This document shows positions 27,145 through 43,758 of a stretch of 64,000 bases of DNA, one piece after another (positions within the stretch are counted from its first letter, which is position 1; every line of letters begins with the position of its first letter). Made by a program: the position numbers and the translations under genes. The notes under the pieces were generated by a model that was not told the origin of the DNA, made no database searches, and saw only the letters and a list, made by a program, of their open reading frames with translations. Location of the stretch: positions 16,281 through 80,280 of the forward strand of contig DSEQ01000009.1 of the NCBI GenBank assembly GCA_011056555.1, in the 5' to 3' direction. This stretch comes from Candidatus Zixiibacteriota bacterium. GTDB taxonomy: Bacteria > Zixibacteria > MSB-5A5 > JAABVY01.

Positions 27145-27629
27145 TTGGTATACCTCATCTCGGCATATTTTGTGGTCATCCCCAGCCGTTCATAAAGCTT
27201 CTTGGCCGGATTGTCATATTCTACATGAAGTTTCACATCCCCCTCAGCCTTATCGAAGCTGTACTTGACAATCTCTCCGCCGATCCCCTTGCCGCGGGCA
27301 ACCGGATCGACCGCTATAAAGAGCAGGATATTGGGAGGAATATAACCGCCCATATCGGTATGCAGCATTACCAGGGCACCCACCGGCTGTTTTTCGATCT
27401 CACCAATCAGGATGAATCCGCCCTTGCCCTCGGCATCGGAAAATGCATAGTCGATCGCTCTTTTAATATCCTCAACCGTATCTTCGTAGGGCTTCAGGCT
27501 TTCATGCAGAAAGCGCGCCAGCTCATCAACGGTAATCCAGTCCGGCATCTCCTCCGGTTTATGCACTTCGTGTATCTTCAGGTTCTCTTTGCTGATCTTA
27601 TTCTTGTCAAGCTTACTTTCAGTTGCCAT
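27141..27629 (-). CDS. GNAT-family N-acetyltransferase
   Basis: 162 aa with motif A VDPVARGKGIGGEIV. The start overlaps the upstream stop by 4 nt. Confidence 0.8.
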   Translation of the reverse strand: MATESKLDKNKISKENLKIHEVHKPEEMPDWITVDELARFLHESLKPYEDTVEDIKRAIDYAFSDAEGKGGFILIGEIEKQPVGALVMLHTDMGGYIPPNILLFIAVDPVARGKGIGGEIVKYSFDKAEGDVKLHVEYDNPAKKLYERLGMTTKYAEMRYTK

Positions 27630-27631
27630 TC

Positions 27632-28210
27632 TTAATTCCCTTCTTTTGCTGATCCGTTTCCTTCATCCGGATCGTTTTGTTCGTCGATAACTGTTATTTC
27701 CGATGCCTCCAGTGGATGGCTGGATAAAAAGGGCGAGGCATCAAGCTTATCGGCACCCATCATAAGCGCTATCCTGTTGAGCGAATTCAGAATCTGGGTC
27801 TTCTCGCTCTCATCCAGATTACTGAATTCGGCCAGAAATTTTTCCTGCAGCAGGGGAGGAGCATTCTCCAGGATTTTTCGAGCGGATTCTGTACCCCGCA
27901 CAAATACCTGACGACGATCCCTCGATCCCCGCCGCCTTTCCACCAGACCCCTGCGCTCCAGACGGTCGATAATACCAGTCACCGTGGCGTTACTCAGGCT
28001 GGCGGTTTTGGCCAGTTCACCCAGAGAGGTCTCCCTGTTTTTCATAATTGATTGCAATAGAAGGAGTTGCGGTCCCGTAAGGCTGTAGTCCTGGACAAGC
28101 CGCCGAGAATGCAGATCAATTGCGCGCATAATACGTCTGAGCGCCACAATCACCTGATCCGAGTATTTTATTTCCGTATCAACCATCTTTTCTATACAAA
28201 TATTTTGCAC
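27632..28210 (-). CDS. MarR-family transcriptional regulator with an acidic C-terminal tail
   Basis: Winged-helix segment LTGPQLLLLQSIMKNRETSLGELAKTASLSNATVTGIIDRLERRGLVERRR. The start codon is uncertain: GTG at 28210 or ATG at 28186. Confidence 0.75.
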   Translation of the reverse strand: MQNICIEKMVDTEIKYSDQVIVALRRIMRAIDLHSRRLVQDYSLTGPQLLLLQSIMKNRETSLGELAKTASLSNATVTGIIDRLERRGLVERRRGSRDRRQVFVRGTESARKILENAPPLLQEKFLAEFSNLDESEKTQILNSLNRIALMMGADKLDASPFLSSHPLEASEITVIDEQNDPDEGNGSAKEGN

Positions 28211-29781: not shown

Positions 29782-31785
29782 CTATTTCTTGCCGGCCTTA
29801 ATCAGTTTCTGAAACCTGCTTATATGCTCCACATCTCCCAAGACATAGAGCGTATCTTCGGCTTCAATCCTGGATGGCCCATCCGGGCTGGTGATAACCC
29901 TGTCCCCCCTCTGAATGGCAATCACTGTAATCCCATGCTTCCTTCTGAGATCAGTCTCCATCAATGTTTTCCCGGCTAATTCGGCTTTTTTATCAACCCT
30001 GAGCGAGCAGACATCAATATCCGAAAGATGGCGCTTGAGGTCAGAGACACTGGAAGTCCTGCGTGAAAGCCCGCGGAACATCTGGTAACTGTCCGCCCTG
30101 ACCTCATCTATGAATTTATCGATCTCCTCGCGCGGCACCAGGTATTTCATCAGCACCTGAGTGAAAATCTCGACTGATGTCTCGAATTCCTCTGGTATCA
30201 CATTATCCGCTCCCAGGTCATATAACGGTTTCATTTCCTGCACAAAACGTGTCCTGACAATTATATGAACACGCGGGTTCATGCGCCGGGCCAGCGCGGT
30301 AATGCGCCGGGTAGCGCTGGGATCGGCAATCGTAATAACGAGAATGCGCGCCTTTTTAATGGCGGCCTGGTGCAGGGCGGCCTCGCCTGTGGCATCACCG
30401 TAAAATATCGGCTCACCCTTCTCCCGCTCCTGGTTGACTGTATCCGGATTCATTTCAATTACTCTGTAATCTATATTCGAGGCCCTGGCTGCACGGGCAA
30501 CATTGCGACCATTGATCCCAAAGCCGATTATTATAAGGTGATCATCCAGGGCTTCGGCAGAAACATGCTTATTTTCTCCCATTGCAATATATGATCCGCT
30601 TTTGTATTTCCTCAGGAAGGGCCAGTCCGACATCCTCTCCGCAAGGCCCGGGGCGGCAGACATGATGAAAGGCGTGACACCCATGGTTAGAATCGAAACC
30701 GCTATAAATCTCTGATATAGATCGCCGTCGATCAGGTTAAACTCCAGTCCGACCCTGGAAAGAATAAACGAAAATTCACCTACCTGGCCCAGGGAAAGTC
30801 CGGCAATTAAAGCCGCACGGCTGGACATCCCCAGAAGCAAAGCCACTCCTGCGGCCAATCCGCTTTTTACGAAAAGGACCAACACAGCACCGCCGGCAAT
30901 TAGAAACGGATTTTCCAGAAAGAACGATATATCCAGAAGCATGCCCACGGATACAAAGAAGAAACTTGTGAAGACCTCCTTGAAGGGCAGGATTCCCTCC
31001 AGCGCTCTATGGCTGTATTCGGATTCGGAGATTACCAGGCCCGCAAGAAATGCTCCCAGTCCCAGCGACAAGCCGGCCTGTGATGTCAGCCAGGCCACGG
31101 CCATTCCGATTACAACTATGCTCAATAGAAAGAGTTCGCGGCTCTGGGTACGGGTTATCTGGTATAATATTCCCGGCACCAGGTAGCGCGCGGTCAGAAC
31201 TACAAGTATAATAACCGCCAGGGCCTTGACAACAAGCATTAAGGGCGATGATCCGGTATGACCCTCAGCCCCGGCCAGGAGAGGGGTGAAAATCATCATC
31301 GGCACTATGATTATATCCTGGAAGATCAATATTGAAAGTACCACCCGTCCATGCGGACTGGCGATTTCGACCTTTTCCTGGAGCACACGCAGGACAATCG
31401 CGGTGCTGCTCAATGCTATCAGGCAGCCGATGAAAAAGGCCCGGGAGGGCTCCTGCCCGAGCTGTATGGCCACCAGGTAGGCAAGTGCTATTGTCAGCAA
31501 CACCTGCAATGTACCCCCCAGCATCACCAGGCGTTTCGAGCGCAGCAGGCTGCGGAATGAAAACTCGATTCCAATCGAAAACAGGAGCAGGATCACGCCA
31601 ATCTCCGCCAGAACCTCTACATCATGTATTGACCTGACGATGCCAAGCGCAGATGGCCCGATTAATAGCCCGGTTACCAGAAATCCAACGATCGAGGGTA
31701 TGCCCAGGCGATGACATATAAAGAGGACGACGACGGAACACCCAAAAATTACAACTATGTCCTGGAGAATCGGAATTTCACCCAC
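29782..31785 (-). CDS. CPA2-family monovalent cation:proton antiporter with TrkA-N and TrkA-C domains (KefB/KefC-like)
   Basis: 667 aa. The N-terminal ~400 aa form a Na_H_exchanger-like membrane domain, followed by a Rossmann segment IIIGFGINGRNVARA and a TrkA-C region. Confidence 0.85.
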   Translation of the reverse strand: MGEIPILQDIVVIFGCSVVVLFICHRLGIPSIVGFLVTGLLIGPSALGIVRSIHDVEVLAEIGVILLLFSIGIEFSFRSLLRSKRLVMLGGTLQVLLTIALAYLVAIQLGQEPSRAFFIGCLIALSSTAIVLRVLQEKVEIASPHGRVVLSILIFQDIIIVPMMIFTPLLAGAEGHTGSSPLMLVVKALAVIILVVLTARYLVPGILYQITRTQSRELFLLSIVVIGMAVAWLTSQAGLSLGLGAFLAGLVISESEYSHRALEGILPFKEVFTSFFFVSVGMLLDISFFLENPFLIAGGAVLVLFVKSGLAAGVALLLGMSSRAALIAGLSLGQVGEFSFILSRVGLEFNLIDGDLYQRFIAVSILTMGVTPFIMSAAPGLAERMSDWPFLRKYKSGSYIAMGENKHVSAEALDDHLIIIGFGINGRNVARAARASNIDYRVIEMNPDTVNQEREKGEPIFYGDATGEAALHQAAIKKARILVITIADPSATRRITALARRMNPRVHIIVRTRFVQEMKPLYDLGADNVIPEEFETSVEIFTQVLMKYLVPREEIDKFIDEVRADSYQMFRGLSRRTSSVSDLKRHLSDIDVCSLRVDKKAELAGKTLMETDLRRKHGITVIAIQRGDRVITSPDGPSRIEAEDTLYVLGDVEHISRFQKLIKAGKK

Positions 31786-32054: not shown

Positions 32055-33362
32055 ATGAATAGACCTGAATCATATCATGCTAATACCGTATGGGTTTTTA
32101 TTCTGACGCTCGTCGTTTTTACGGTTGTTTCCGTTCCGGCATTCTGTTACGAGATCGACACAACAAGAGTCCGCGAGAAGCCCGAAGAGAATATAACATT
32201 CGGGGAGGCGGTGCTGGCTGCGCCGTCATTCATCCTGAATCTCCCCTTCTGGGTGCTGAAAAATGTGTCCGATTTCACGGTAAACGAAATCGTCTATTCC
32301 AAACCCATTCAGGCGCTTTTTGCTTTGAAACTCAGGCCAATTTGGGGATTCTACCCCACAGGGGGCTATAATTCCAACGCCGGCGTTAAAGCTGGAATTG
32401 TCTATAGAGTAAAAGATCTTCTCTCGGAGGAGGAGGATTTTAAGGTCAAAGCCTCCTACTCCACCCACGACTACCAGACCTACAGCCTGAGATACAAGAT
32501 CATGCCTCAGAATTCCATATTCAATGAAGTGCATTTCAATTTTAGTTATAGACAGAAGCCCCGCGAAAGCTTTTATGGCATCGGTAACAGGACCTCAGAT
32601 GACAATGAGGTTGCCTTTAACCTCGAAAACGGATTCATGGGCTTCGGCTGGAACCATGAGATTTCCAGTCAGTTCTCAACCGGAGTTGACTTCTCCTACC
32701 GGATACTGAATATCTATGACGGGCAGGACCCATCATTGACCGGCTCTCTCGATTCTATCCAAGCAAAATTCGATCTCAGCGAGGATGAGCTGGCGAATGC
32801 ACGTGTTCTGACTGTGGGCATGAACCTGAAATATGATTGGCGCGACCACCCCGGGCAGACCACATCTGGAGGATACCACGCCCTTGAGCTGTCCTACAAC
32901 AGGGGCAGAGGACAACTTCAAGACCTTGAATATTTCCTGGCTTCGGTTAGTCTATATCAATTCATTCACATTTACAGGCAAAGAGTGCTGGTTCTTAATT
33001 TCCGCACGGAGACCATTGGCAAAACCGATGGATCGCCGGATTTGCCATTTTATCTGAGACCAGCACTGGGTGGTGAAGAGAGTCTGCATGGATATAAGGA
33101 GCATCGCTTCATAGATAATACAACCATGCTGGCGGCGGTAGAATACCGCTTTCCCCTCTTGCAGGGTGTGGACGGCTTATTGTTTTTTGAAGAGGGTAGA
33201 GTTTTTGATGATTTTTCTAAGGATTTCGATCTGAAAAACTGGCATTATTCTACCGGCATCGGTATCAGGTTGTGGGATCAGGAAGGCCTGAGATTAAACG
33301 GCTATGCTGCTTTCAGCAAAGAGAGTCCGCAATTTTACGTGCATTTGTCCGAAACACTCTAA
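32055..33362 (+). CDS. Omp85-family outer-membrane beta-barrel (bacterial surface antigen D15-like, no POTRA domains evident)
   Basis: Signal peptide followed by an alternating amphipathic beta-strand pattern. A loop-6-like motif LGGEESLHGY is present (cf. VRGF/Y of Omp85 proteins). The C-terminal region is aromatic-rich. Confidence 0.55.
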   Translation: MNRPESYHANTVWVFILTLVVFTVVSVPAFCYEIDTTRVREKPEENITFGEAVLAAPSFILNLPFWVLKNVSDFTVNEIVYSKPIQALFALKLRPIWGFYPTGGYNSNAGVKAGIVYRVKDLLSEEEDFKVKASYSTHDYQTYSLRYKIMPQNSIFNEVHFNFSYRQKPRESFYGIGNRTSDDNEVAFNLENGFMGFGWNHEISSQFSTGVDFSYRILNIYDGQDPSLTGSLDSIQAKFDLSEDELANARVLTVGMNLKYDWRDHPGQTTSGGYHALELSYNRGRGQLQDLEYFLASVSLYQFIHIYRQRVLVLNFRTETIGKTDGSPDLPFYLRPALGGEESLHGYKEHRFIDNTTMLAAVEYRFPLLQGVDGLLFFEEGRVFDDFSKDFDLKNWHYSTGIGIRLWDQEGLRLNGYAAFSKESPQFYVHLSETL

Positions 33363-33373
33363 GGATGCACATT

Positions 33374-35086
33374 ATGAAAAATTATATGAAAATATCTTTA
33401 TTGCTGCTGTCACTGATGCTTATGCTGGGTTGCAGCGGCTACAAACCAGTCTTGCAACCGGAGGGTCCCTACTGGGTTGACGACGATAAACAGGATATCC
33501 CGGAACCATCATCCAAGGACCCAAACTTAGCCTGGATGTCCATCAAGCGTTCCAGCTTCGACCAGATTGAAGACGGCCTCGATCTGGAACGGAATTTCAG
33601 GATTCTATCCGATGAGCGTGAAGAAGCGGCCAATATCAACAGTTTCGACGAGGTTCCCAACTGCACCTGGTTCACCAACCGTCATGGTTTCGCACGCATG
33701 ACTCCGGACGAGATCGCCGAAGGAGTCGATCTCACGCCGGGACCGGACACAAGCGGACCATGGCTTGTATTTCGTCCTAAGGTGCAGGGTACCACTCCCG
33801 GTTTCTGGATCGAGGATTCACGGGGAGATCAATATGTCATCAAATTCGACCCGAAGGGGTATCCTGAGATGGCTACGGCGGCGGCCGCCATGGCTTCCCG
33901 ATATTTCCATGCTTGCGGTTATAATGTGCCCCAGGAAACAATTGTATATTATCGTCCCGAAATCCTTCAGGTCAAAGAAGGGGTGAAGTTTGAAGACAAA
34001 GCTGGTGTGAAACGTGAATTCACTCAGCAGGACTTAGAGGATATTCTTAAACGAGTACATCACGAGCCGGACGGGAGAATTCGGTCACTGGCCTCGCTTT
34101 CTCTGGGAATTCATGGTAAAATCAAGGGCCCTTTCAGCTATAGCGGAAGACGGAGCGATGATCCCAATGACTGGTTCGATCACCAGGACAGGCGGGAATT
34201 GCGCGGGCTGTATGTCATCGGATCGTTCATAAATCATTATGACCTGAAGGACCAGAATTCCCTCGATATCTATGTGGAGGAAAACGGAAATAAATTTCTA
34301 AAGCATTTCCTGATCGATTTCGGTTCCACCTTCGGCTCTGACGGCCAGGGGCCAAAGCCGCCTATTAAGGGCTATGCCAATATGATCGATCTTCGTGACG
34401 CCTTCGTATCCCTGATAACTGTCGGCCTCAAGACATGGGACTGGCGGGGAGGTGGCGAGGTAATCTACCCATCCATCGGCTATTTCGAAGCGGATATCTT
34501 TCAGCCCGATAAGTTCGATCCGATCTACCCCAATCCCGCTTTTGAGGACAAAACCGACCGCGACTGCTACTGGGGAGCCAAAATCGTTATGGCATTCCGC
34601 GACAGTGATTTACGCGCCCTGATCGAAACCGGGCAGTATTCCAATCCCCAAGCCGAGGAATATCTGTTCGAAACCCTGAAAAAGCGCCGCGACAAGATTG
34701 GACGATTCTGGTTTTCAAAGGTCAATCCCCTGGATTATTTTGAAACGGAATATGCTGGCAGTGATCTCAGAATCAGGTTCGATGACCTGGGAATCAAATA
34801 CGAGCTCTGGCCCCAAGATGCGGTCTATGACTATGAAATCAGATACGGCAAGGAACTTATCCGCAAGGATCGGGTTAAAACTGGCGAAATAATTCTGACA
34901 CAGGATGATTTAAATCGCATGACCTCGGCATTTAAAGCCACGGATAAAAAAGAGGATTATATTTACAGGATGGATATCAGAACCACCAGAGGGAATGGTG
35001 ATCCGAGCAAGCCAACCCGATTGCATTTCTGGTATCATCATGATGAAAATAAATTCTCATTGGTGGGAGTCGAACATCTGGATTGA
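33374..35086 (+). CDS. lipoprotein with a eukaryotic-like (Hanks-type) protein-kinase-fold core
   Basis: ATG at 33374 with an AAGGA SD. The signal peptide plus lipobox is MKNYMKISLLLLSLMLMLGC. Kinase motifs are YVIKF (Lys codon 33842-33844), HYDLKDQN (34235-34258) and DFG (34316-34324). The ORF-track start at 33272 overlaps the upstream gene and is rejected. Confidence 0.6.
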   Translation: MKNYMKISLLLLSLMLMLGCSGYKPVLQPEGPYWVDDDKQDIPEPSSKDPNLAWMSIKRSSFDQIEDGLDLERNFRILSDEREEAANINSFDEVPNCTWFTNRHGFARMTPDEIAEGVDLTPGPDTSGPWLVFRPKVQGTTPGFWIEDSRGDQYVIKFDPKGYPEMATAAAAMASRYFHACGYNVPQETIVYYRPEILQVKEGVKFEDKAGVKREFTQQDLEDILKRVHHEPDGRIRSLASLSLGIHGKIKGPFSYSGRRSDDPNDWFDHQDRRELRGLYVIGSFINHYDLKDQNSLDIYVEENGNKFLKHFLIDFGSTFGSDGQGPKPPIKGYANMIDLRDAFVSLITVGLKTWDWRGGGEVIYPSIGYFEADIFQPDKFDPIYPNPAFEDKTDRDCYWGAKIVMAFRDSDLRALIETGQYSNPQAEEYLFETLKKRRDKIGRFWFSKVNPLDYFETEYAGSDLRIRFDDLGIKYELWPQDAVYDYEIRYGKELIRKDRVKTGEIILTQDDLNRMTSAFKATDKKEDYIYRMDIRTTRGNGDPSKPTRLHFWYHHDENKFSLVGVEHLD

Positions 35087-35089
35087 TTT

Positions 35090-36319
35090 GTGATCATGAA
35101 GGTAAGTATTTTTATACCCATATCAATTTTATGCCTGTTTCAGGCATTCACATCTCTCCATGCAGAATCCAATGATCCACATGCAATCAGTGGAAGTGAT
35201 TTTGATCATTTAATGAATATCCAGAATGTTGAATTACAGAATAAACTCGAGAATATATTTCCCGAGAGTGAAGGTTATCTGGTAAGCGGACCTCTGTGCG
35301 ACGATACGTTCGAGGACTCTGCGTATTTTTATTGCGGTGCGGTCAGGGTTATTTGCCCAAACCTTAAACTATATAAGCAAGGTATAGACATAGCCGCCGG
35401 CATGGACAGTCTCACTGCAATTACAGATTATCCGGATCCAAGCGGATCATACTATGCCTTTGAAAAATATTATACTTATCATAATGGTAACCTGGTCGAT
35501 ACGTTCAAGTTTGAAACCGCAAATTCCGTTCGGTACGAGCTTGCCTTAAATAAGGAGCTGATATTCAGCCCGCTTCGAAGTGATGTCATCCGCATGCCCG
35601 ATTCAGAACGTAAGGAAATGCATGATTATTTCCTTCAATATGACTCCGGGAATATTCCGGCAGAGCAGCTTTACATACATTACGTACCCTATATCATCGA
35701 GGGCTATCAGAATTACAAAGAGTTCCTTTTAAGTCATGCCGAGATCGATCTCGATTTCATAAGCGGCGTGACCGCCTTTGTACCCACTGAAGAAACTCTG
35801 CAATGGTTCAGGGAGAATGCTCCGCAGGAGGCATATCCCAATAAGGAAGCGTCCAAATTTGAGGAGGAAATTCATGAATTCTTCGAGCGCGGCGGTGATT
35901 TGCGCGTCATCCAGACTTTAACGAAAGAAGGCTTCGACACACTTCAAAGCGGGGAATATTTCTATGCTGTCAGCCCTGCATACAAAATTCGTTTTGGACG
36001 GGAGCTTTTGCGCGAGGAGGTCAAACGTATCGAAGAGGAAACGGGCAAGAAGGTCCCGCGCGCCAATCATGCCTTTTTATTCCCGGGCGAAGCGGTACTG
36101 ACCGCCGGGGCTTTCTGGATAGATACAGACAAGGAAAACAAGCTGGTCAAGGTCAATGCCCAGTCCGGCCATTATTTCTACAGCAATGTTTCCCCGACTA
36201 TCCGCGAGGATATCTCCGAACGTTCCGACCATTACCTGACCACGCTGGGTCATTTTTTCAAGGCCCTTGACAGCCTGCAAATTCCCTGCGATAAGATTCT
36301 CATAAGTAAACTCCAATGA
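35090..36319 (+). CDS. secreted hypothetical protein
   Basis: 409 aa with signal peptide MIMKVSIFIPISILCLFQAFTSLHAE and no recognised domain. The start is 4 nt after the upstream stop. Confidence 0.55.
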   Translation: MIMKVSIFIPISILCLFQAFTSLHAESNDPHAISGSDFDHLMNIQNVELQNKLENIFPESEGYLVSGPLCDDTFEDSAYFYCGAVRVICPNLKLYKQGIDIAAGMDSLTAITDYPDPSGSYYAFEKYYTYHNGNLVDTFKFETANSVRYELALNKELIFSPLRSDVIRMPDSERKEMHDYFLQYDSGNIPAEQLYIHYVPYIIEGYQNYKEFLLSHAEIDLDFISGVTAFVPTEETLQWFRENAPQEAYPNKEASKFEEEIHEFFERGGDLRVIQTLTKEGFDTLQSGEYFYAVSPAYKIRFGRELLREEVKRIEEETGKKVPRANHAFLFPGEAVLTAGAFWIDTDKENKLVKVNAQSGHYFYSNVSPTIREDISERSDHYLTTLGHFFKALDSLQIPCDKILISKLQ

Positions 36320-36340: not shown

Positions 36341-37192
36341 ATGAAAAAAGTCGGCAGTTACAAGATATTATTGATTCTATCCATACTCTTTTTCTCCTTC
36401 CGGCCTTTACCGGCAGACGACCGTGAATATCTCTCCAGCACAGAGATCACTGGCATATCGGCCGGCTCGATTGCGCTGGGAGCCGCGGGGCTGTGGGCAC
36501 TCGATTTCGATAGCACCCGTCGTCCGGTAATTTCAGGCCCGGCGCCATGGGAAGAGTCGATTCAGCGTTTTCTGGGCGGGAGATACTATCCGGGCAAAAC
36601 CAACTGGCTGGACCACAGCTTCGGCTCTTCCATAACTCCCATTTTGATGGGCGGTTTGCTTCTGGGCGCCGATATCAGCTGGCCCCGGTATGATCGCGCC
36701 AAAGATGTCTGGCAGGATATGTTTTTGTACGGCGCGGGCCTTCTTGCAACCAAAGGCGTTACCGGGATCACCAAGGGTTTCTTCGCACGTCCGCGTCCCA
36801 TGGTCGCGCTTGAGCCTGAGCTTTACAACCGGAATAAAAATAATGATTACGCCCAGGATCGGGCTTCATTCTTCTCGGGTCATACCTCCAGCGCCTTTTT
36901 CTCCACCGCTTTTCTGAATATGCGCATCCGCCAGATCATGCGCCAGGAGATGACCTATAATGACTACAAGGACTGGCGCTGGCTGCCGCCGACAATCCTG
37001 TTCGGCTGGGCCTCCTACGTGGGCTACACCCGTATCGATGCTTATAAACACTATATAACCGATGTTGTTTTTGGAGCTCTGGCAGGATGGGTGATGGCGG
37101 AGCTGTTTTATCATTTCGGCGACAATATAGAAAAGCCCCGGGACTCATCATCAAGGGGCAAGGTTCTATTCAAAATAGGATTCAGCTTTTAG
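36341..37192 (+). CDS. PAP2-superfamily membrane phosphatase/phosphotransferase
   Basis: PAP2 motifs KGFFARPRP (KxxxxxxRP), SGHTS (PSGH) and YTRIDAYKHYITD (SRxxxxxHxxxD-like), with multiple TM helices. Confidence 0.8.
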   Translation: MKKVGSYKILLILSILFFSFRPLPADDREYLSSTEITGISAGSIALGAAGLWALDFDSTRRPVISGPAPWEESIQRFLGGRYYPGKTNWLDHSFGSSITPILMGGLLLGADISWPRYDRAKDVWQDMFLYGAGLLATKGVTGITKGFFARPRPMVALEPELYNRNKNNDYAQDRASFFSGHTSSAFFSTAFLNMRIRQIMRQEMTYNDYKDWRWLPPTILFGWASYVGYTRIDAYKHYITDVVFGALAGWVMAELFYHFGDNIEKPRDSSSRGKVLFKIGFSF

Positions 37193-37671
37193 ATAAATGT
37201 CTTCACGATCTCGGTCTGCAAACCCTGAAGCTCACCATAGGCCTTATTGATTTCCGCTATCTTCTCCTCCAGCTTTTTCATGAGCTTTTGTCTTTCGATG
37301 CCATTCCGAAGAACGATCAGGAGATCATCATTATCCCACGGTTTCTCAATATACTGGAACAGTCCGACGTCATTTATAGCCTTGATTGCATTTTCCTTGT
37401 CGGCATAACCGGTCAGAATAATACGAGGCACCTGGGGCCGCATCTCCTTGACCTTTGCCAGAAAGGATATCCCATCCATCTCCGGCATCAGATAATCGGA
37501 AATCACCACATCAATCTCATTCTTCTTGATATATTCCAGCGCGTCTTTCGCTGAGGTGAAGGTCTCGACAGTGTATTCCGTCTCGAGGCTCAAGAATGAA
37601 TTGAGGCTCGTCAGGACCATCTCTTCATCATCAACGATTACGACCGTGCTTTTCTCCTTATCATCAACCAT
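37189..37671 (-). CDS. standalone response-regulator receiver (REC) domain protein
   Basis: 160 aa with the phospho-acceptor region DVVISDYLMPEMDG. It is a close paralog of the REC domain in the upstream gene. Confidence 0.85.
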   Translation of the reverse strand: MVDDKEKSTVVIVDDEEMVLTSLNSFLSLETEYTVETFTSAKDALEYIKKNEIDVVISDYLMPEMDGISFLAKVKEMRPQVPRIILTGYADKENAIKAINDVGLFQYIEKPWDNDDLLIVLRNGIERQKLMKKLEEKIAEINKAYGELQGLQTEIVKTFI

Positions 37672-37673
37672 CT

Positions 37674-38900
37674 CTATCTCCTGTCTGTGTTAATTTCGAT
37701 TCCGAACAGTGTAACATCATCACTATACACCCCGCCATTAAAATCACCCAGGGACTCCGCCAGGCCATTAATTATTTCCCCGCAGGCGGAGCTGCCTAAT
37801 TTCTTCAAGACTTCGGGCAGATTTTTGCTTTCAAAAAAGTCTCCATCCTTGTTGACCGCCTCGGTCAGTCCGTCAGTATATAATATCAAACTGTTGCCCG
37901 GGTCAAGCATTACTGCTTTATCCGGCCCCGGCTTATACATTTCCGGTCTTATAAAGCCCAGCATCATACCGTTAGACGCAACCAGTTCCGATTTGTTTTC
38001 CTGCTTGCGAATAAGATACGGATAAGTCAAGCCGCCGTTAGATATGGTGATCTCCCTTTTGCCCGGATCGATCCTGGCAACCAGTGCCGCCACATAGAGT
38101 TCCTCCGGGAGGCCCTTCTCCAGGATTTCGTTCATGCCGCTCAGGATTTGCGAGGGTTGATGGTTTCCTCCGGCAAATGATACGAAGGCGAATTTCAGAA
38201 GCGCGGTGCTCAGAGCCGCCTGTATGCCATGCCCGGTGGCATCCGCCACCAATACCGACCAGCAGCCGTCCTGCATCGGTATGATATCATAAAAATCACC
38301 GCCAATCTCTATCGCCGGCTTATAGTAAGTTTCAAATTTCACGCCGTCAATTTGGGGAAGTTTACGCGGCAGCAATGCCTGCTGGAGCTTGCGGGCAAGC
38401 TTCAGCTCACGTGCAATCATATTGTTGTGTTCAAAGAGCTCATCACGATGTCTCAGGACTTCATCCAGCTCCTTGATCTTCATGTGCAGATGCTCTCTCA
38501 GGCTCTTGGATTCAATAGCATTTTTGAGAACCAGCTTAAGCTGTTCATTGTCCCATGGTTTTTCCAGGTACTGGAACAGGCTTACCTCGTTGATGGCCTT
38601 GATGGCATTTTCCTTGTCGGCATAACCGGTAAGAAGAATCCGGGGCAGGTCGGGATACATTTCCCGCACTGCACTCAAAAACTGCAGACCGTTCATATCC
38701 GGCATCAGGAAATCGGATATAACCACATCCACCGGCTTCTGCTTCAGCCGCTCCAGAGCCTCATGCGGTGACTGGTAGCCGATCACATTGTATTCGGTCT
38801 CCAGTTCCAGAAAAGATCCCAGGCTCTGCACCACAATCTCATCGTCATCGACCAGCATTATGGTTTTTGACGATCTCTCATCCATATTACTATCGCTCAT
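37674..38900 (-). CDS. response regulator with C-terminal PP2C/SpoIIE-type serine phosphatase domain (RsbU/RssB-like)
   Basis: N-terminal REC (DVVISDFLMPDMNG) plus a C-terminal PP2C region (GGDFYDIIP ... VADATGHG ... LYTDGLTEA). Confidence 0.85.
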   Translation of the reverse strand: MSDSNMDERSSKTIMLVDDDEIVVQSLGSFLELETEYNVIGYQSPHEALERLKQKPVDVVISDFLMPDMNGLQFLSAVREMYPDLPRILLTGYADKENAIKAINEVSLFQYLEKPWDNEQLKLVLKNAIESKSLREHLHMKIKELDEVLRHRDELFEHNNMIARELKLARKLQQALLPRKLPQIDGVKFETYYKPAIEIGGDFYDIIPMQDGCWSVLVADATGHGIQAALSTALLKFAFVSFAGGNHQPSQILSGMNEILEKGLPEELYVAALVARIDPGKREITISNGGLTYPYLIRKQENKSELVASNGMMLGFIRPEMYKPGPDKAVMLDPGNSLILYTDGLTEAVNKDGDFFESKNLPEVLKKLGSSACGEIINGLAESLGDFNGGVYSDDVTLFGIEINTDRR

Positions 38901-40480
38901 CGTCCTCGAATTGGAATTATGATTCTGAAGGTTGTACCCTGATTCACTCTGGATTCGACCTCGATTCGGCCCTTATGGTCCTCAGTTATCTGGTGAACGA
39001 TCGAAAGCCCCAGGCCGGTTCCGACCCCGGCGCCTTTGGTTGTATATCCCGGATCAAATACCCGTTCCAGTTTATCCTCGGGAATTCCGCGGCCGGTATC
39101 GGAAAATTCAATAACAGCATCGCCGCCCTGGCGGCGTGTTCTGATAATAATCTTACCTTTATCCTCGATAGCCTGGCTGGCATTGACCAGTATATTCATA
39201 AAGACCTGGTTAAGCTGGTTGGGATAGCAGCTTATCTTCGGCAAATCCCCATAATCCTTTTCAACTTCCACCCGATCCTTGAGCTGGTGATGCACCAGTG
39301 TCAACGTATTTTCTATGCCGTCATGGATATTTACAGTATCCATTTCCGCCTGGTCGAGGCGGGCGAATTTGCGCAGGCTGCTGACAATATTGATTATTCG
39401 GGAAGAGGCTGTTTTATTGATCCGGGTGAGATCTTCCATATTTTCCAACAGCTTACCGAGCTGCTTGCTTTCACGAAATTCGGTCGGCGCAGCAGAATCG
39501 GAGACCATGGCCTTCAGCTTCTCGATAGAGCGGATGAAAAGATCGTTGTTGCTGTTGAGTGCTCCCAATGGCGTATTGATTTCGTGGGCTACGCCCGCCA
39601 CCAGATTACCGAGGGCAGCCATTTTTTCCGCCTGCACCAGCTGCGTCTGTTTCTGTCGCAGCTCCCTTGTCCGTTCCTCCACCTTCTGCTCGAGCTCCTC
39701 GTTAGCTTTTTTCAGCTCCTGCTCAAGCCGGTATCGGGTCGTAACGTCCTGCACAATATTCAGTTCGCGCCAGTTATGTTTAATATCCCGAAAATAGCCG
39801 GTGGTGAACTGGTAAACTCTGTTGTTGGGAAATATCCTCTCCTCCACATAGACGCCGTCCTCGCTCAGGATCTGCTCGCTTTCCACCCGCTGATCGTCAA
39901 TAGACTGCTCCCAACCGCATGGGCAGCCCTCATCCCGGGCCCGGTCAAAAATCTCTTTCAGCTTTTTATTCTCAAATTCAACTTTCGGTTCGCCATTTAT
40001 ATTCTTACGTACCCCCAGACCGACCGGCATTAGATCAAGAATATATTCATAATATTCGCGCAGGCGTCTATTCTCCCTCTGCAAAAGAACGCGACTTGTT
40101 ATGTCACGGCAAATACGCTGAATGATCTTCTTGTCCCCGTAATTTATGACTCCTGCGGAAATTTCTATATCCAGGAGGGTCTTATCTTTTCGCAGAAAAT
40201 GCAGTTCGCCGGTATAGCCCTTACCGCTTTCCACCACCTGGTTAAAAAGCCGCCTGGATTCCTCCCACTCAGATTCGGGATGGAGTTCCCAGACTTTCTT
40301 ACCCACTAACTCGTCAACGCTGAAGCCGGTCAGCTTCTCGGCCCTGAGATTCGCCTCCAGTATGGTGCCGTCAGCCGGTTCGATCGAAAAGATGGCGTCG
40401 CTGGCCATCTCGATCATCTTGCGGTATTTCTCTTCCGACTCCCGCAGGCTTTTTAAATCGGAGTTATCTGCCTTAACCAT
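38897..40480 (-). CDS. cytoplasmic PAS-domain sensor histidine kinase
   Basis: No TM segments. PAS-like N-terminal regions, an H-box VAGVAHEINTPL and HATPase_c G-boxes (DTGRGI and GTGLGLSIV). Confidence 0.85.
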   Translation of the reverse strand: MVKADNSDLKSLRESEEKYRKMIEMASDAIFSIEPADGTILEANLRAEKLTGFSVDELVGKKVWELHPESEWEESRRLFNQVVESGKGYTGELHFLRKDKTLLDIEISAGVINYGDKKIIQRICRDITSRVLLQRENRRLREYYEYILDLMPVGLGVRKNINGEPKVEFENKKLKEIFDRARDEGCPCGWEQSIDDQRVESEQILSEDGVYVEERIFPNNRVYQFTTGYFRDIKHNWRELNIVQDVTTRYRLEQELKKANEELEQKVEERTRELRQKQTQLVQAEKMAALGNLVAGVAHEINTPLGALNSNNDLFIRSIEKLKAMVSDSAAPTEFRESKQLGKLLENMEDLTRINKTASSRIINIVSSLRKFARLDQAEMDTVNIHDGIENTLTLVHHQLKDRVEVEKDYGDLPKISCYPNQLNQVFMNILVNASQAIEDKGKIIIRTRRQGGDAVIEFSDTGRGIPEDKLERVFDPGYTTKGAGVGTGLGLSIVHQITEDHKGRIEVESRVNQGTTFRIIIPIRGR

Positions 40481-40508
40481 ATTTTCATATCCGGTCCCGG
40501 CGCCGATG

Positions 40509-40937
40509 TCAGGCTACTCGTTCGACCAAATTCCTGAGCCTCTTTACCACAGTCTTGATTACGCCCTGCGCAATCTGCACATGGTCGGCCAGCAGATCGA
40601 TGAAATCCTCGCGGTCGACACGAAGCAGACGGCAGTCTGCGGCCGCGGTTGCGGTTACCACTCTCGGCTCCTCATCAAAAAGAGCCCAGGTACCAAAGGC
40701 ATCGTCTTTTTCTGCAGTGGAAATTTCCTGGTCGCCTCTGTGCAGCTTCACCTTGCCCTCCAGCACAAGGTAGAGCGCATCCGAGGGATCATGTTCCTTG
40801 TAGATCACGTCCCCCTTGATATATTCCACTTCCTCTGCTATCGAGGCCAGAGAGGCCAGCTGCTCGGTGGGCACTTCCGAGAAAACATCGATATTCTGCA
40901 AAAGAATTACTTTTTCAACAATAGAAAGCATACTCAA
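40509..40937 (-). CDS. standalone cyclic-nucleotide-binding (CAP effector) domain protein
   Basis: 142 aa with ..GDVIYKEHDPSDALYLVLEGKVKL ... FGTWALFDEEPRVVTATAAADCRLL.. and no DNA-binding domain. Confidence 0.75.
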   Translation of the reverse strand: MSMLSIVEKVILLQNIDVFSEVPTEQLASLASIAEEVEYIKGDVIYKEHDPSDALYLVLEGKVKLHRGDQEISTAEKDDAFGTWALFDEEPRVVTATAAADCRLLRVDREDFIDLLADHVQIAQGVIKTVVKRLRNLVERVA

Positions 40938-40986
40938 TACTCTTTATTTAAACAACGTCATTTCCACATCAAAGTTCTTACAGGCA

Positions 40987-43758
40987 CTATGTTTCAAACC
41001 GCTTAACCACTCTTTCCGCAGTCTCCTTTACCAATGGGTCGGGATCATTTTGAGCGTCGTGGATTAGCTTCCTCATATTCTCGGAAGCATTAGCGGTAAC
41101 ATTATAGATCGCACAACACCTGAGCCAATTATCGTGACCCTTGATAAGGCGCTCCAGGGCTTCCTCCCGGGTACGGGTCTTGACACGGAAAAACTCCTCG
41201 CCTTTGCGAAGCACTGTTTCGACCGGAACATCATCGAGTATCGGGAGAATATATTTCTTTACGTCGCGACTCAGGAGATTATCGAGAAACTCGATAGCAT
41301 TGGCCTGAAGCACCTTTTTGCCGCTCACGAACCCCTGATAGGCATAAAATATGTCTGTGGGAGGATAGACCAGACCCAGGAGCCGGAATATCCGTTCGAG
41401 GTTGTACTGCTGTTTTTCTTCCAGCGCCTTTTTCAGGAGTTTGGAACCCGGTGATTCATCGAATTGCCTGTGGGAATATAGGATCTGGTAAATTTCATAA
41501 TAATCCTTGATTTCATTCAGAAGGACCTGTTCCACCTTCCCATGGTCAAAGCTGAGCTCCGAATAGACGCTTCGCAGGCTGTTCAGGGCTTTGACCACAT
41601 GATATTTCAGGGAGGGTTCCACCTTATCCAGGTTGTCGGTCAAAACATCAACTGTCTCCTGCTCAGGAATCAGCTTCATCACCCTTGGTATATTTTTGCG
41701 AATATTGTAATCGACTGCGCGGTCGTGCAGGTAATCGCTGAGGGTCCCCAGCACGCCTGTTCCGAAATCGGCCAGCGCTTTGCGAACATTTGCGCGCAAA
41801 TCCCTGTCGGTCAATCTCTCGATCAGCCAGGGTATATATTTGCGCCGTTTCAAACGGCCGATGCATTCTATCGCATTTTTCACCACCTCGATCGACTTAT
41901 CATTAAGCAGAATCTCTATGTAGCCGCTGAATTCCGGTTTGTTCACCACGCCCAGAATCCGGGCGACCTGAATACGGCTCAATTCCGCCTCCTCAGATAT
42001 ATCGCGCATGGCCGCCTTTATGAGTTCCTCATCGACCAGCTCCCTTTCCTCCGGACGGCCATAATCGGTAAGATATGCCAGAGCTGCATTGACTATGCGA
42101 GGGTCATCGCTGCGCAGGTATTCCCGCAGTTTTTCCAGAGTATCTCCCTCGGTTCGGGAGCATATGAAGTGCACGGCCTCCGAACGGACCTCAATGTCCT
42201 CATCAGTCAGCATCTTCTCTACTATCTCCATATGCGAGCGGTCGCCATGCTCGAGAAGCACCTTCAGCGCATCGAGCCTGATGTCGGCCGACTCATGCCT
42301 CAAATGAGGAACTACTTTTTCCACCCTCTCAACATTCTTCACCGAACGCAGCATCTCCAGCGCATATCCAATCTGCCGATCATTGGGGCTGTCCAGCGAA
42401 TTTATCAGCGCATTGATGGTGGAGCGGTCATCGATCTGAACGGTGAGCCTGGAATAGTCGATCTCGCGCTTTTCAATGGCTCTGCGGAATGAATTCAGAT
42501 ATTCCTTCCGCATGAAGACAGTCAGGGTTAACCAGATAAGCAGTAATCCAATCACGATCAGACTGATTTCCTTTACCGTCAGATGAAAGACGAGGGTGCA
42601 GAGAAGCAGAAGGGCGCCGGCAAATCCGCGGAACCACCTGTCCACGAACATATCGATAAATATTTTTGTGCGCTTTTTTACCTCCAGCGGTATGGGCAAA
42701 AACAGCAATTCCCTGCCGGTCTTGTCCATAGAATATTTTATACTGCCATCCACTCCCCTCAGCATTATACCGGCAATCAAGCCGGGGAAGAGAAACATCG
42801 CCGCTGAGCCAAGCAATAATCCCGTCGGCAGAAACATAATGATACCGCCCACCCCCAAAAAGCGAATTAGCCTGTATGTAAAAAACAATTGCAGTATTAG
42901 TGAAGCCATGCTGAGCCAGCTGTAGAACTGTCCGAAGAATGATGTCAGATCAGCTTTTTCCGGATAAGCAGCTTTGGATACGGTTTTGAACTGCCAATCC
43001 ACAAATGAAGCCACCATCATGGTTATAGCTATAATACCCACAAGCAATAACAGGTGGCGTGACCTGAAAATCGTCTTTGTAATCTGCCCCAGCTTTTCCC
43101 CGGGGGGCTCGCGATGGCGAGCGGAACGCTGAAGTTCCTTCTCCGAAACAGTCTTCTTCTTCCAGATTACGGCTACCAGTAAAGCTACAATTACGAGCGG
43201 TACCATACAGATAAATAAGAGGTTTTCCGTGCCTACATCCAGGGCCTTGACGAGGAAACTGGTGACCTGTCCACCGGTGAAGGCGCCGATAATCCCCCCC
43301 AGTCCGAGTAATGTGAAGACTCGTTTGGCCTGTGCAGAATTATACACGGCATTGGCCAGAAGCCAGAATTGGGAGGTCGTAAGCACGCCATAGATGCTCA
43401 CCCATGTATAAAATAGATAATAAACCCAGGCGCTGGAGATCTGGACCAGCCAGCGCAGAATAAAAAGATTCACTATAATAATGGCAAGAGTGAAAATAAT
43501 CAGTCGATTCAGCTTCAACGAACGGCTGGCCCTGGAATAAAGTGTAACAACAGGAGCGGTCACCAGGGCGGTGATAATGAAAACAAGCGGGAGCATCTCC
43601 GAACTGACCCTCACCAGAAACAGCGAATCCCTGGCGGGTTTAAGCAGGTAATAGCTCAAAAGGATCAGGTAATAACTGGACAGCATCAGCAGGGTCAGTG
43701 CGATTTCACCCTTCCTGATGTCAAATATCGATTTGAGAAAACTCTTCATCGAATTCAT
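40987..43758 (-). CDS. fusion protein: N-terminal TLC/Npt-like (ATP:ADP antiporter family) 12-TM permease plus C-terminal HEAT-repeat (PBS-lyase-like) domain
   Basis: 923 aa. The N-terminus (ALTLLMLSSYYLILLSYYLLKPARDSLFLV) aligns by eye with the N-terminus of chlamydial/rickettsial nucleotide translocases. The C-terminal ~480 aa carry repeated D..VR..A..AL helical units (DADIRLDALKVL, DEDIEVRSEAVHFI, DKSIEVVKNAIECIG). Confidence 0.7.
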   Translation of the reverse strand: MNSMKSFLKSIFDIRKGEIALTLLMLSSYYLILLSYYLLKPARDSLFLVRVSSEMLPLVFIITALVTAPVVTLYSRASRSLKLNRLIIFTLAIIIVNLFILRWLVQISSAWVYYLFYTWVSIYGVLTTSQFWLLANAVYNSAQAKRVFTLLGLGGIIGAFTGGQVTSFLVKALDVGTENLLFICMVPLVIVALLVAVIWKKKTVSEKELQRSARHREPPGEKLGQITKTIFRSRHLLLLVGIIAITMMVASFVDWQFKTVSKAAYPEKADLTSFFGQFYSWLSMASLILQLFFTYRLIRFLGVGGIIMFLPTGLLLGSAAMFLFPGLIAGIMLRGVDGSIKYSMDKTGRELLFLPIPLEVKKRTKIFIDMFVDRWFRGFAGALLLLCTLVFHLTVKEISLIVIGLLLIWLTLTVFMRKEYLNSFRRAIEKREIDYSRLTVQIDDRSTINALINSLDSPNDRQIGYALEMLRSVKNVERVEKVVPHLRHESADIRLDALKVLLEHGDRSHMEIVEKMLTDEDIEVRSEAVHFICSRTEGDTLEKLREYLRSDDPRIVNAALAYLTDYGRPEERELVDEELIKAAMRDISEEAELSRIQVARILGVVNKPEFSGYIEILLNDKSIEVVKNAIECIGRLKRRKYIPWLIERLTDRDLRANVRKALADFGTGVLGTLSDYLHDRAVDYNIRKNIPRVMKLIPEQETVDVLTDNLDKVEPSLKYHVVKALNSLRSVYSELSFDHGKVEQVLLNEIKDYYEIYQILYSHRQFDESPGSKLLKKALEEKQQYNLERIFRLLGLVYPPTDIFYAYQGFVSGKKVLQANAIEFLDNLLSRDVKKYILPILDDVPVETVLRKGEEFFRVKTRTREEALERLIKGHDNWLRCCAIYNVTANASENMRKLIHDAQNDPDPLVKETAERVVKRFET

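Follow-up and report, generated by a model that had tools for sequence, protein, structure and literature searches.

Kinase-like gene and its surroundings

The analysed window, a stretch of 64,000 nucleotides from a Candidatus Zixiibacteriota genome, contains on its forward strand a gene for a kinase-like predicted lipoprotein (33365..35086, 573 amino acids plus stop), delimited by the open reading frame listing, the upstream stop and the start context. The stop of the preceding gene at 33360-33362 leaves ATG 33365 or ATG 33374 as the probable true start, the latter having AAGGA 8 nt upstream. The GTG at 33272, from which an earlier note on this DNA numbered the residues, overlaps the preceding gene by 91 nt and is an unlikely start; residues K191, D324 and D349 of that note correspond to K160, D293 and D318 in the 573-residue numbering used here.

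The N-terminus reads MHIMKNYMKISLLLLSLMLMLGC, with the cysteine codon at 33431-33433. The predicted type II signal peptide (33365..33433, forward strand), MHIMKNYMK-ISLLLLSLMLML-GC, has the positively charged n-region, hydrophobic h-region and lipobox cysteine (L-M-L-G-C) of a lipoprotein, the methionine at position -3 being slightly atypical. This lipobox had been recognized in the earlier note, and its cysteine, Cys23, is invariant in all 41 close homologues. Of 76 family members, 49 were assigned a lipobox by script and five others by eye, and most of the remaining ones were judged by eye to have Sec-type signal peptides; a signal peptide, Sec-like or with a lipobox, is thus present at the start of nearly all inspected members, across phyla. 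Because Cys23 is invariant in the close clade and distant homologues carry a lipobox or a Sec signal, the prediction of an exported lipoprotein is supported at the sequence level. Sec export and lipidation of Cys23 would leave the protein membrane-tethered and facing the periplasm, and, if the E. coli sorting rules hold, Ser at +2 points to the outer membrane, on its inner leaflet.

The signal peptide is followed on the same strand by a family-specific N-terminal extension (residues 24-132; 33434..33760), a predicted protein-kinase-like (PKL) catalytic core (residues 133-452; 33761..34720) and a predicted C-terminal FN3/Ig-like beta-sandwich (residues 456-573; 34730..35083). According to AF2 secondary structure, pLDDT and conservation, the extension consists of a flexible tether and two helices with a conserved N-x-N-x-F-D-E-V-P-N-x-x-W-F-T-N-R motif; D95, W102 and N105 are invariant in close homologues and R106 is nearly so.

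The gene directly upstream (32055..33362, forward strand) encodes a 435-aa Omp85-family outer-membrane beta-barrel with a signal peptide (NCBIfam Omp85_fam, E 9.5e-22, residues 208-432), whose homologues match Pfam PF01103. It has no POTRA match at E<=1, and its signal peptide is followed after only about 65 residues by the first barrel-like strands; therefore it is not a classical TpsB or BamA. To our knowledge, the POTRA-less subclass of Omp85 has no assigned function. Downstream, 35090..36319 (forward strand) encodes an exported 409-aa protein with a Sec-type signal peptide, seen in Zixibacteria only, the N-terminal half of which has a RelA/SpoT-like nucleotidyltransferase fold. An active RelA/SpoT-type synthetase was considered for this product and rejected, as the canonical acidic residues are not conserved, and similarity of fold alone is claimed. 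The last gene of the forward-strand cluster codes for a PAP2-family membrane phosphatase (36341..37192; Pfam PAP2, E 2.3e-21).

On the reverse strand, Pfam identified genes for a response regulator (37189-37671), a response regulator-PP2C/SpoIIE phosphatase (37674-38900), a PAS histidine kinase (38897-40480) and a cyclic-nucleotide-binding protein (40509-40937). These regulatory genes lie between the kinase module and that of a 923-aa TLC/NTT-type (ATP/ADP-translocase-like) transporter fused to HEAT repeats (40987..43758, reverse strand; TLC E 3.1e-21, HEAT_2 E 1.2e-23). The TLC-HEAT gene is about 6 kb from the kinase-like gene, on the opposite strand and not in one operon with it. In other phyla, the small response regulator also accompanies TLC-HEAT (E 1e-70 to 1e-92).

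Motifs, conservation and fold

In the core of the protein, K160 is kept as the predicted nucleotide-binding lysine, D293 as the catalytic Asp, and N298 and D318 as the metal ligands. The motifs read in the earlier note are all present in the DNA at the positions given there. AAA at 33842-33844 (forward strand) encodes the lysine of Q-Y-V-I-K-F-D, that is, Lys160 in I-K-F-D-P, a candidate ATP-phosphate-binding residue in predicted strand beta3 (156-161). CAT TAT GAC CTG AAG GAC CAG AAT at 34235-34258 encodes HYDLKDQN, the main part of the predicted catalytic loop N290-H-Y-D293-L-K-D-Q-N298 (34232..34258, forward strand), which in the AF2 model comes after helix 282-288, the alphaE equivalent, and before hairpin 299-316. 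GAT TTC GGT at 34316-34324 (forward strand) encodes D318-F-G, preceded by the near-invariant His314; its candidate metal-binding Asp lies 25 residues past the catalytic-loop Asp. A chance origin of the motifs is dismissed, since the strict pattern H.D.K..N.{15,35}DFG occurs once among the window ORFs of at least 80 aa (40,585 residues) and in 0 of 20,000 shuffles of the kinase-like protein.

The homologue search returned more than 2,000 sequences. The family comprises 2,764 clusters at 50% identity from at least 566 species of many diderm phyla, and all its named members are annotated as "hypothetical". Conservation was assessed in a diverse set of 47 homologues (30-57% identity) and in the close set of 41. 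Lys is found at position 160 in 46/47 diverse and 41/41 close homologues; among the diverse ones, D162 is kept in 45, D293 in 46, N298 in 44, D318 in 44, H314 in 46 and G324 in all 47. Loss of the motif residues among homologues, named in the earlier note as evidence against a kinase, was thus not observed, at least 44 of the 47 keeping each of Lys160, Asp293, Asn298 and Asp318. Further family-specific invariant residues are D266, D269, H273, R277, R280, D400, W403 and R441. The diverse alignment contains no conserved stretch of 7-10 residues.

Two details of the motifs are read differently in the light of the alignments. First, only the Asp and the Asn of HYDLKDQN are kept family-wide, the Tyr position being variable and the Lys position being K or R in 39/47; the near-perfect HRDLKxxN appearance therefore seems to be partly a feature of the clade of the window protein. 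Since the Tyr position is not conserved, the suggestion that HYD in place of HRD points to a particular mode of regulation carries no weight. Second, the Glu-containing helix proposed earlier is indeed predicted (residues 169-184), but E168 (PEMATAAAA) is only its N-cap, and the acidic position of the family is 174 (Glu in 36 and Asp in 6 of the 47). The window protein and its clade in Zixibacteria depart from the remaining family in having A174 and no acidic residue on this alphaC-equivalent helix. Exactly one acidic residue at position 174 or 191 is present in 85/87 sequences, and E191 may stand in for the acidic residue 174 in the Zixibacteria clade.

Because the lysine lies in beta3, the D-x-x-x-x-N loop follows the alphaE equivalent, DFG comes next, and the residues concerned are conserved, the modelled PKL fold is supported. 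The core is of the HipA/CtkA/PI4K-II/Fam20 structural type, with the flexible tether before it and the FN3-like domain after it, and is nearest to the HipA/PI4K-II/Fam20/CotH structural branch; in the fold comparison CtkA was the best match, and HipA, Fam20C, CotH and actin-fragmin kinase were also matched. As the catalytic residues are kept at 30-57% identity and lie in the expected PKL elements, the protein is likely to be catalytically competent.

The structural part of the check proposed in the earlier note thus favoured a kinase-like fold, while a match to the profile of a known kinase family was not obtained. No Pfam family matched the protein at E<=1, and no meaningful match came from Pfam, NCBIfam and PADLOC or from sequence searches of the PDB, whether queried with the protein alone or with the profile of its family; the sole profile match, to an IgA receptor in the C-terminal domain, was judged spurious. 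No sequence profile of a known kinase family reached significance for the window protein. Pkinase (PF00069) matched neither the protein nor its 47 diverse relatives, nor did Fam20C (PF06702) at E<=1, the likeness to Fam20C being structural only. HipA_C (PF07804) and HipA_2 (PF20613) did not match the window protein, the best relative scoring 19.2 bits against a cut-off of 27, and a comparison of the family alignment with E. coli HipA in hhalign gave a probability of 0.35% with no meaningful alignment. PI3_PI4_kinase (PF00454) matched one of the 47 relatives at E 0.3 and did not match the window protein. The kinase-like family has no matching Pfam or NCBIfam model.

As to the Hanks catalytic signature claimed in the earlier note, the beta3 Lys, the catalytic-loop Asp and Asn, and the DFG Asp are in place, but the Pkinase profile is not matched and the ePK-specific C-lobe (APE motif, alphaF-alphaI) is not found. 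The beta1-beta2 loop, R-P-K139-V-Q-G142-T-T-P-G146, has conserved K139, G142 and G146 and does not follow the Gly-rich GxGxxG pattern. The residues that are present do not separate kinase families, because they are common to the whole PKL superfamily.

Conserved neighbourhood in related loci

The conserved gene neighbourhood, which we regard as the most important feature of the family, was absent from the earlier note. It was analysed in 80 genome loci found with the close-homologue alignment, 42 of them well-flanked (at least 5 kb of flank). An Omp85 barrel is encoded in 69/80 loci (39/42 well-flanked), nearly always as the gene immediately upstream in the same orientation; in four loci (L033, L039, L044 and L091) the Omp85-kinase pair is tandem-duplicated as a unit. 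In 49/80 loci (31/42 well-flanked) the kinase-like gene has a TLC-family gene within 7 kb, which in over 20 loci, belonging to several phyla, follows it directly and in the same direction; the 11 well-flanked loci with no TLC gene within 7 kb keep the Omp85-kinase pair. An exported phosphatase, PAP2 or metallophosphoesterase, is encoded nearby in 21/42 well-flanked loci. PAP2 occurs in 15 of the 80 loci, 12 of them from Zixibacteria, and is replaced in other lineages by a metallophosphoesterase, in most cases with an N-terminal lipobox or Sec-like signal peptide. A Rhodothermales genome contains a clean Omp85-kinase-metallophosphoesterase-TLC-TLC-HEAT operon.

Among loci collected with the short TLC carrier as a seed, the foremost conserved neighbours, TLC-family genes aside, are the kinase-like gene and Omp85. 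The kinase-like gene is present in 16/80 such metagenome loci and in 9/26 of those of at least 9 kb; a short TLC carrier specific to the kinase system was rejected on these counts. The kinase-TLC coupling is frequent, not obligatory.

A HipA-type toxin-antitoxin operon with a HipB/HipS partner was not found, the neighbours being Omp85, the exported protein and PAP2. An anti-phage defence or toxin role, by analogy with HipA and CtkA, was rejected because there is no PADLOC match and no antitoxin-like neighbour, and also because the envelope-gene context is conserved across phyla.

Proposed role and alternatives

The reading we prefer, with a probability of roughly 0.55, is that of an active extracytoplasmic, lipid-anchored kinase of the PKL fold that forms a unit with the Omp85 barrel, is opposed by exported phosphatases and is fed by NTT carriers. 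The protein would most likely transfer phosphate from a nucleotide to an envelope substrate, acting together with the POTRA-less barrel encoded directly upstream. The co-encoded exported phosphatases, PAP2 in the window and lipoprotein metallophosphoesterases in other lineages, would counter it, and the co-encoded TLC/NTT carriers would pass the nucleotide through the inner membrane, relying on the exchange of ATP and ADP that is known for NTTs but with the ATP sink in the periplasm. Characterised NTTs import; export of ATP by the carriers of the cluster is what exchange thermodynamics would allow. Against a kinase fed in this way stands the general view that the periplasm lacks ATP. As the substrate, a protein linked to or passing through the Omp85 partner is slightly favoured over an envelope lipid or glycan.

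Phosphorylation of a lipid head group, of LPS/lipid A or of a surface glycan, the phosphate being removed by PAP2, is a possibility to which we give a clear minority chance. It departs from the preferred reading in substrate only. The lipid tether to the membrane surface has a parallel in palmitoylated PI4K II-alpha, and the phosphorylation of xylose by Fam20B is a parallel for glycans. However, CtkA, the best structural match, phosphorylates proteins, as do HipA, Fam20C, CotH and actin-fragmin kinase; the partner found universally is a barrel of protein-handling type, and PAP2 is largely limited to the Zixibacteria clade, the metallophosphoesterases found elsewhere having no assigned specificity.

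Scavenging or sensing of nucleotides or phosphate is unlikely. Here the barrel would admit extracellular nucleotides, the kinase-fold lipoprotein bind or process them, the phosphatases trim them and the NTTs import the products, in line with PMC5381601, according to which all characterised NTTs are importers. The phosphatases are indeed exported, the kinase fold is in the first place a nucleotide-binding fold, and the second exported protein next door has a nucleotidyltransferase-like fold. But scavenging needs no phosphotransferase, while the catalytic Asp and both metal ligands are kept beyond the nucleotide-binding residues, and the Omp85-kinase pair persists where TLC is missing. We also know of no Omp85 barrel acting as a nucleotide channel.

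An inert pseudokinase that plugs the barrel structurally, chaperones it or regulates it as a subunit, possibly sensing a ligand such as ATP, would fit the tight one-to-one pairing of the two genes and their joint tandem duplication, the loss of the alphaC-position acidic residue in the Zixibacteria clade and the accepted scarcity of periplasmic ATP. Pseudokinases usually lose at least one of the Lys, the catalytic Asp and the DFG Asp, but each of these is kept across the diverse set; moreover, the acidic residue appears to be relocated rather than lost, and an inert scaffold would have little use for the phosphatases and nucleotide carriers encoded with it. We consider this role quite improbable. 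The view of the earlier note, a Hanks-type (eukaryote-like) Ser/Thr kinase relocated outside the cell, drew on the resemblance of HYDLKDQN, DFG and the upstream Lys to Hanks subdomains VIb, VII and II, is refuted by the profile and fold searches and retains hardly any probability.

Returning to the proposed lipid-anchored kinase, its family differs from the known systems that it resembles. CtkA is a strain-variable, host-directed factor, unlike the widely conserved chromosomal gene of environmental bacteria described here. This secreted Ser/Thr kinase of Helicobacter pylori (JHP0940, PDB 3AKJ) has 13% identity and no profile relationship to the window protein, and lacks the lipobox, the N-terminal extension, the FN3-like C-terminal domain and the Omp85/NTT/phosphatase neighbourhood. 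HipA of the HipA/HipT toxin kinases is cytoplasmic, whereas the window protein is predicted to be exported and has no HipB/HipS-type partner. Fam20 kinases (the Golgi casein kinase Fam20C, the xylosylkinase Fam20B) are Golgi enzymes of eukaryotes, carry an insertion domain of their own and are about 11% identical to the window protein, which has no PF06702 match; a parallel in ATP supply may be drawn by analogy. PI4K-II alpha (PDB 4PLA/4HND) is a eukaryotic lipid kinase of the cytosolic face.

The exported alarmone synthetases SaEAS and VpEAS/RelV provide a precedent for Sec-exported nucleotide-consuming bacterial enzymes, and the authors raise the source of the nucleotide as an open question (PMC12691689). 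They differ from the kinase-like protein in fold and chemistry, the general fold being shared with the 35090..36319 product; in the available part of that paper their genes are presented as loci standing alone, with no mention of a nucleotide carrier. The NTT-HEAT carriers of free-living bacteria have no known function according to PMC5381601, the available part of which does not connect them with an exported kinase-like protein or with an Omp85 barrel; the 923-aa TLC-HEAT and the adjacent cNMP-binding protein of the window match the architecture and operon given there. A full-text literature search found no description of the kinase-like family or of a kinase-NTT carrier link, and the link of NTT-HEAT to the exported kinase-like protein and the Omp85 barrel is new here.

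If the kinase is active, a large bacterial family would join the short list of extracytosolic kinases (Fam20 and, arguably, CotH and CtkA), and its neighbourhood would offer a testable answer on the role of NTT and NTT-HEAT carriers in free-living bacteria (PMC5381601) and on the nucleotide supply of exported enzymes in a compartment believed to lack ATP (PMC12691689). A more general proposal, tentative and in our opinion rather doubtful, is that of a dedicated extracytoplasmic phosphorylation system in many diderm phyla (Zixibacteria, Latescibacterota, Gemmatimonadota, Acidobacteriota, Rhodothermales and other Bacteroidota, Calditrichota, KSB1 and Nitrospirota), comprising an Omp85-docked atypical kinase, reversing phosphatases and ATP-exporting NTT/TLC carriers. 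If it holds, the carriers would swap cytoplasmic ATP for ADP, as a bacterial counterpart of Golgi Fam20 with its nucleotide import; orphan NTT and NTT-HEAT carriers would gain a function, and the rule of an ATP-free periplasm would be contradicted. The pairing of the kinase with a POTRA-less Omp85 suggests a new way to modify or regulate something at the outer membrane, and even with an inactive kinase the conserved Omp85-lipoprotein pair would be a new envelope module.

Gene, motifs and export signals

The kinase-like open reading frame extends over 33272-35086 on the forward strand. Reading of the DNA found in it all motifs of the earlier note, which had claimed a Hanks-type kinase signature behind a lipobox, and all positions agree: the Lys codon AAA at 33842-33844 (within Q-Y-V-I-K-F-D), H-Y-D-L-K-D-Q-N at 34235-34258, D-F-G at 34316-34324 and, in the N-terminus MHIMKNYMKISLLLLSLMLMLGC, the Cys codon at 33431-33433 (all +). 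The motif H.D.K..N.{15,35}DFG occurs once among the window ORFs of at least 80 aa (40,585 residues) and in 0 of 20,000 shuffles of the kinase-like protein. As the stop codon TAA of the upstream gene lies at 33360-33362, the start is probably ATG 33365 or ATG 33374, the latter with AAGGA 8 nt upstream of the codon, and the overlapping GTG 33272 seems unlikely. Residues are counted here from ATG 33365, giving a protein of 573 aa, so that K191, D324 and D349 of the earlier note become K160, D293 and D318.

All members of the protein's close clade have Cys23. A lipobox was detected by script in 49 of 76 family members from 80 genomes and by eye in five more (e.g., LVVSCSAPP, LLLYGCGTAS); lipid anchoring is predicted in about two thirds of the family. 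Most remaining members, mainly from Latescibacterota, Gemmatimonadota and Acidobacteriota, begin with Sec-type signal peptides (e.g., ...AYAGEPPL, ...ALAQRPL). Judging from these two kinds of signal, the whole family appears to be located outside the cytoplasm.

Fold, family and conserved residues

Homologues of the kinase-like protein number more than 2,000 (90%-identity clusters) and are encoded in at least 566 species genomes; 2,764 representatives of 50%-identity clusters match the family at E<=0.001, 737 of them at E<=1e-30. All members are named "hypothetical protein" in their sources. The closest named relatives belong to Zixibacteria, which places the window in this phylum; other carriers, by label, are Latescibacterota, KSB1, Calditrichota, Gemmatimonadota, Acidobacteriota, Rhodothermales, Balneolaceae, other Bacteroidota, Marinimicrobia, Nitrospirota and Poribacteria.

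No model of Pfam-A, NCBIfam or PADLOC matched the protein, and PDB sequence searches, with the single protein or the family profile as query, returned no kinase. The profile search against kinase-like models proposed in the earlier note thus left the window protein without a match and yielded only sub-threshold hits in relatives: of 47 diverse members scanned singly, 10 matched HipA_2 (best E 8e-4, 19.2 bits vs. a 27-bit cut-off), six HipA_C and one PI3_PI4_kinase. In re-scanned members the HipA matches cover residues ~129-226 and align with the start of the HipA models.

The structure prediction proposed at the same time places the motifs in a protein-kinase-like (PKL) fold. The AlphaFold2 model, based on an alignment of 41 homologues, has high confidence (mean pLDDT 89.8, pTM 0.90) and comprises an N-terminal signal peptide, an extended tether (residues 24-54), two helices with a conserved coil region (55-132), a bilobal core (133-452) and a C-terminal beta-sandwich (456-571). 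Fold comparison gave the highest value for Helicobacter pylori CtkA (13.5), followed by PI4K type II-alpha (11.7), Hydra Fam20 xylosylkinase (10.8), a HipA_C-domain kinase (7WCF, 10.3), zebrafish Fam20C (10.2), Shewanella HipA (10.0), CotH (9.9), actin-fragmin kinase (9.6), C. elegans Fam20C (9.5), MavQ (8.0), WaaP (6.6) and, at 6.4 each, Rio1 and YabT, the best Hanks-type kinase. These values assign the modelled protein to the HipA/CtkA/PI4K-II/Fam20/CotH branch of the PKL superfamily. Hanks identity is rejected (YabT 6.4 vs. CtkA 13.5); what stands of the original reading is that the protein is kinase-like, by fold and conserved residues, and exported. In the model, K160 lies in the third N-lobe strand (156-161), the N-H-x-D-x-x-x-x-N loop between helix 282-288 and hairpin 299-316, and DFG immediately C-terminal to this hairpin, i.e., the motif residues are predicted to be where the PKL fold needs them.

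Among 47 homologues with 30-57% identity to the query, K160 is conserved in 46, D162 in 45, D293 in 46, N298 in 44, H314 in 46, D318 in 44 and G324 in all 47; K160, D293 and D318, whose loss among homologues would have spoken against the earlier note, are hence kept in 44-46 of 47. Its match to HRDLKxxN is family-wide for Asp and Asn only, the remainder being clade-specific (position 292 is variable, position 295 is K/R in 39/47). Family-specific invariant residues are D266, D269, H273, R277, R280, D400, W403 and R441, those from D266 to R280 lying in a D-D-P-N-D...H..R-R-E-L-R-G segment N-terminal to the catalytic loop.

In the alphaC-equivalent helix, position 174 is Glu or Asp in 42/47 diverse members and Ala, Gly, Ser or Thr in the window protein (A174, codon 33884-33886, +) and all 41 close relatives; Glu191 (codon 33935-33937, +) is invariant in the clade of the window protein and mostly Asn elsewhere. 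Over the 87 sequences of the close and diverse alignments, 41 carry an acid at 174 only, 44 at 191 only, one at both and one at neither. It looks as if a needed acidic residue had moved, not decayed, and the pattern may reflect few evolutionary events. By the usual criteria, applied to the sequence, the protein is no pseudokinase.

Conserved gene neighbourhood

In the window, the kinase-like lipoprotein gene (33365-35086, +) starts 2 nt past the stop codon of an Omp85-family barrel gene (32055-33362, +) and is followed by genes for an exported protein without assigned function (35090-36319, +) and a PAP2 phosphatase (36341-37192, +). The barrel protein has only ~65 residues between signal peptide and barrel, POTRA domains being undetected and apparently absent; we know of no function assigned to this Omp85 subclass. 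Genes farther out (29782-31785, -; 44597-47527, +; 22328-28210) are ordinary ones for a Na+/H+ exchanger with TrkA domains, a TonB-dependent receptor with a CarboxypepD_reg domain, a class-III aminotransferase, a sodium:solute symporter, an alanine-racemase-like protein, a GNAT acetyltransferase and a MarR regulator; in other phyla, none of them recurs as a conserved neighbour of the kinase-like gene.

Window proteins were compared with the ORFs of 80 genome loci, and all ORFs were clustered all-against-all; 42 well-flanked loci had at least 5 kb on both sides. The kinase-like gene shows conserved linkage to an Omp85 barrel (69/80 loci, 39/42 well-flanked), carriers of the ATP/ADP-translocase type (TLC/NTT; genes of at least 350 aa in 49/80 and 31/42) and exported phosphatases, PAP2 or metallophosphoesterase (31/80 and 21/42). 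The Omp85-like gene nearly always directly precedes the kinase-like gene in the same orientation, and in more than 20 loci a co-directional TLC gene starts at most 200 bp downstream, such direct succession being found in Latescibacterota, Bacteroidota, Calditrichota, KSB1, Gemmatimonadota and Acidobacteriota. PAP2 was found in 15 loci and a calcineurin-like metallophosphoesterase in 18, most of the latter beginning with lipobox or Sec-like signal peptides. Outside the window's clade the metallophosphoesterase lies directly downstream of the kinase-like gene (L018, L020, L021, L025, L036, L045, L066, L080 and other related loci, 18 in total), a position matching that of the 35090-36319 protein and the PAP2 slot. 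One Rhodothermales genome has a single co-directional array of Omp85, kinase-like, metallophosphoesterase, short TLC and TLC-HEAT (HEAT-repeat fusion) genes.

In L033, L039, L044 and L091 the Omp85-kinase pair is tandemly duplicated as a unit, which implies, at the level of gene order, that each kinase-like protein would work with its own barrel; a single TLC gene follows the duplicated pairs. In the reverse test, metagenome loci seeded with short TLC contained the kinase-like gene in 16/80 cases (9/26 among loci of at least 9 kb), and this gene and Omp85 ranked first among the conserved neighbours that do not belong to the TLC family. As this test is weaker, the kinase-TLC linkage is strong but not obligatory.

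A membrane-anchored Hanks-type Ser/Thr kinase (HRDVKPxN, DFG) adjoins the kinase-like/TLC cluster in L029, L048, L052, L054, L059, L062, L069, L072, L076 and L083, labelled largely Gemmatimonadota, and recurs in nine short-TLC-seeded metagenome loci; this kinase might regulate the system from the cytoplasmic side.

Proposed function and nucleotide carriers

By computation, the protein has a PKL fold like that of HipA, CtkA, PI4K-II and Fam20, keeps the residues for nucleotide binding, catalysis and metal binding, and carries an export signal of a kind conserved in the family; the functional steps beyond fold, conservation and synteny are those we infer. The protein would be an active phosphotransferase at the membrane surface in the periplasm, acting jointly with its own barrel, and the adjacent phosphatases would undo its reaction. 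NTT carriers could provide the nucleotide: characterised NTTs are counter-exchangers (PMC5381601), and high cytoplasmic ATP together with a periplasmic ATP sink yielding ADP would run the exchange outward.

The substrate may be a protein, given that protein kinases prevail among the structural neighbours and that the partner barrel is of the protein-handling type. A lipid or glycan is well in play too, in view of the similarity to PI4K-II, the lipid anchor, PAP2 and the arginines that do not vary. A nucleotide-scavenging or sensing module fits poorly with a catalytic set that is conserved in full, and so does an inert scaffold.

As a phosphotransferase, the protein would work like CtkA, HipA and the Fam20-type atypical kinases, none of whose sequence profiles admits it; unlike HipA it has no antitoxin partner, and unlike Fam20 it is not eukaryotic. 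It is a new family-level variant within the known PKL superfamily, and the surrounding system, if working as proposed, would be considerably more novel. In full-text literature searches, neither the family nor any connection of a kinase with NTT carriers turned up; a 2026 preprint that describes new PKL families treats a different, intracellular PAP2-linked one. A 2025 study of exported alarmone synthetases calls it unclear by what route exported enzymes that depend on nucleotides obtain their substrates in the periplasm or outside the cell (PMC12691689). With a family so widespread, matched by no profile or paper in our searches, two open questions, the role of NTT and NTT-HEAT carriers in free-living bacteria and the nucleotide source of exported enzymes, become accessible to direct tests.

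The short TLC carriers whose genes adjoin the kinase-like gene (L010-L081) are of two sequence types, ...TAENATDYSLQNTVRQ...PTTREEKYKAKQAID... and ...NTADNGFSYSINQSAKE...PTTREEKYKAKAFID..., and some loci have both a short TLC and a long TLC-HEAT. Carriers of the NTT-HEAT type whose gene lies beside one for a cNMP-binding protein are reported as widespread in free-living bacteria, their function not being known (PMC5381601). In the window, such a carrier (TLC/NTT-HEAT, 43758-40987, -) forms one operon (37189-43758, -), convergent with the forward-strand cluster, with genes for a cNMP-binding protein (40937-40509, -), a PAS histidine kinase (40480-38897, -), a response regulator fused to a PP2C phosphatase (38900-37674, -) and a single-domain response regulator (37671-37189, -). 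The latter (160 aa) is extremely conserved beside TLC-HEAT in other phyla (E 1e-70 to 1e-92), which suggests that the operon encodes a signal-regulated nucleotide carrier.
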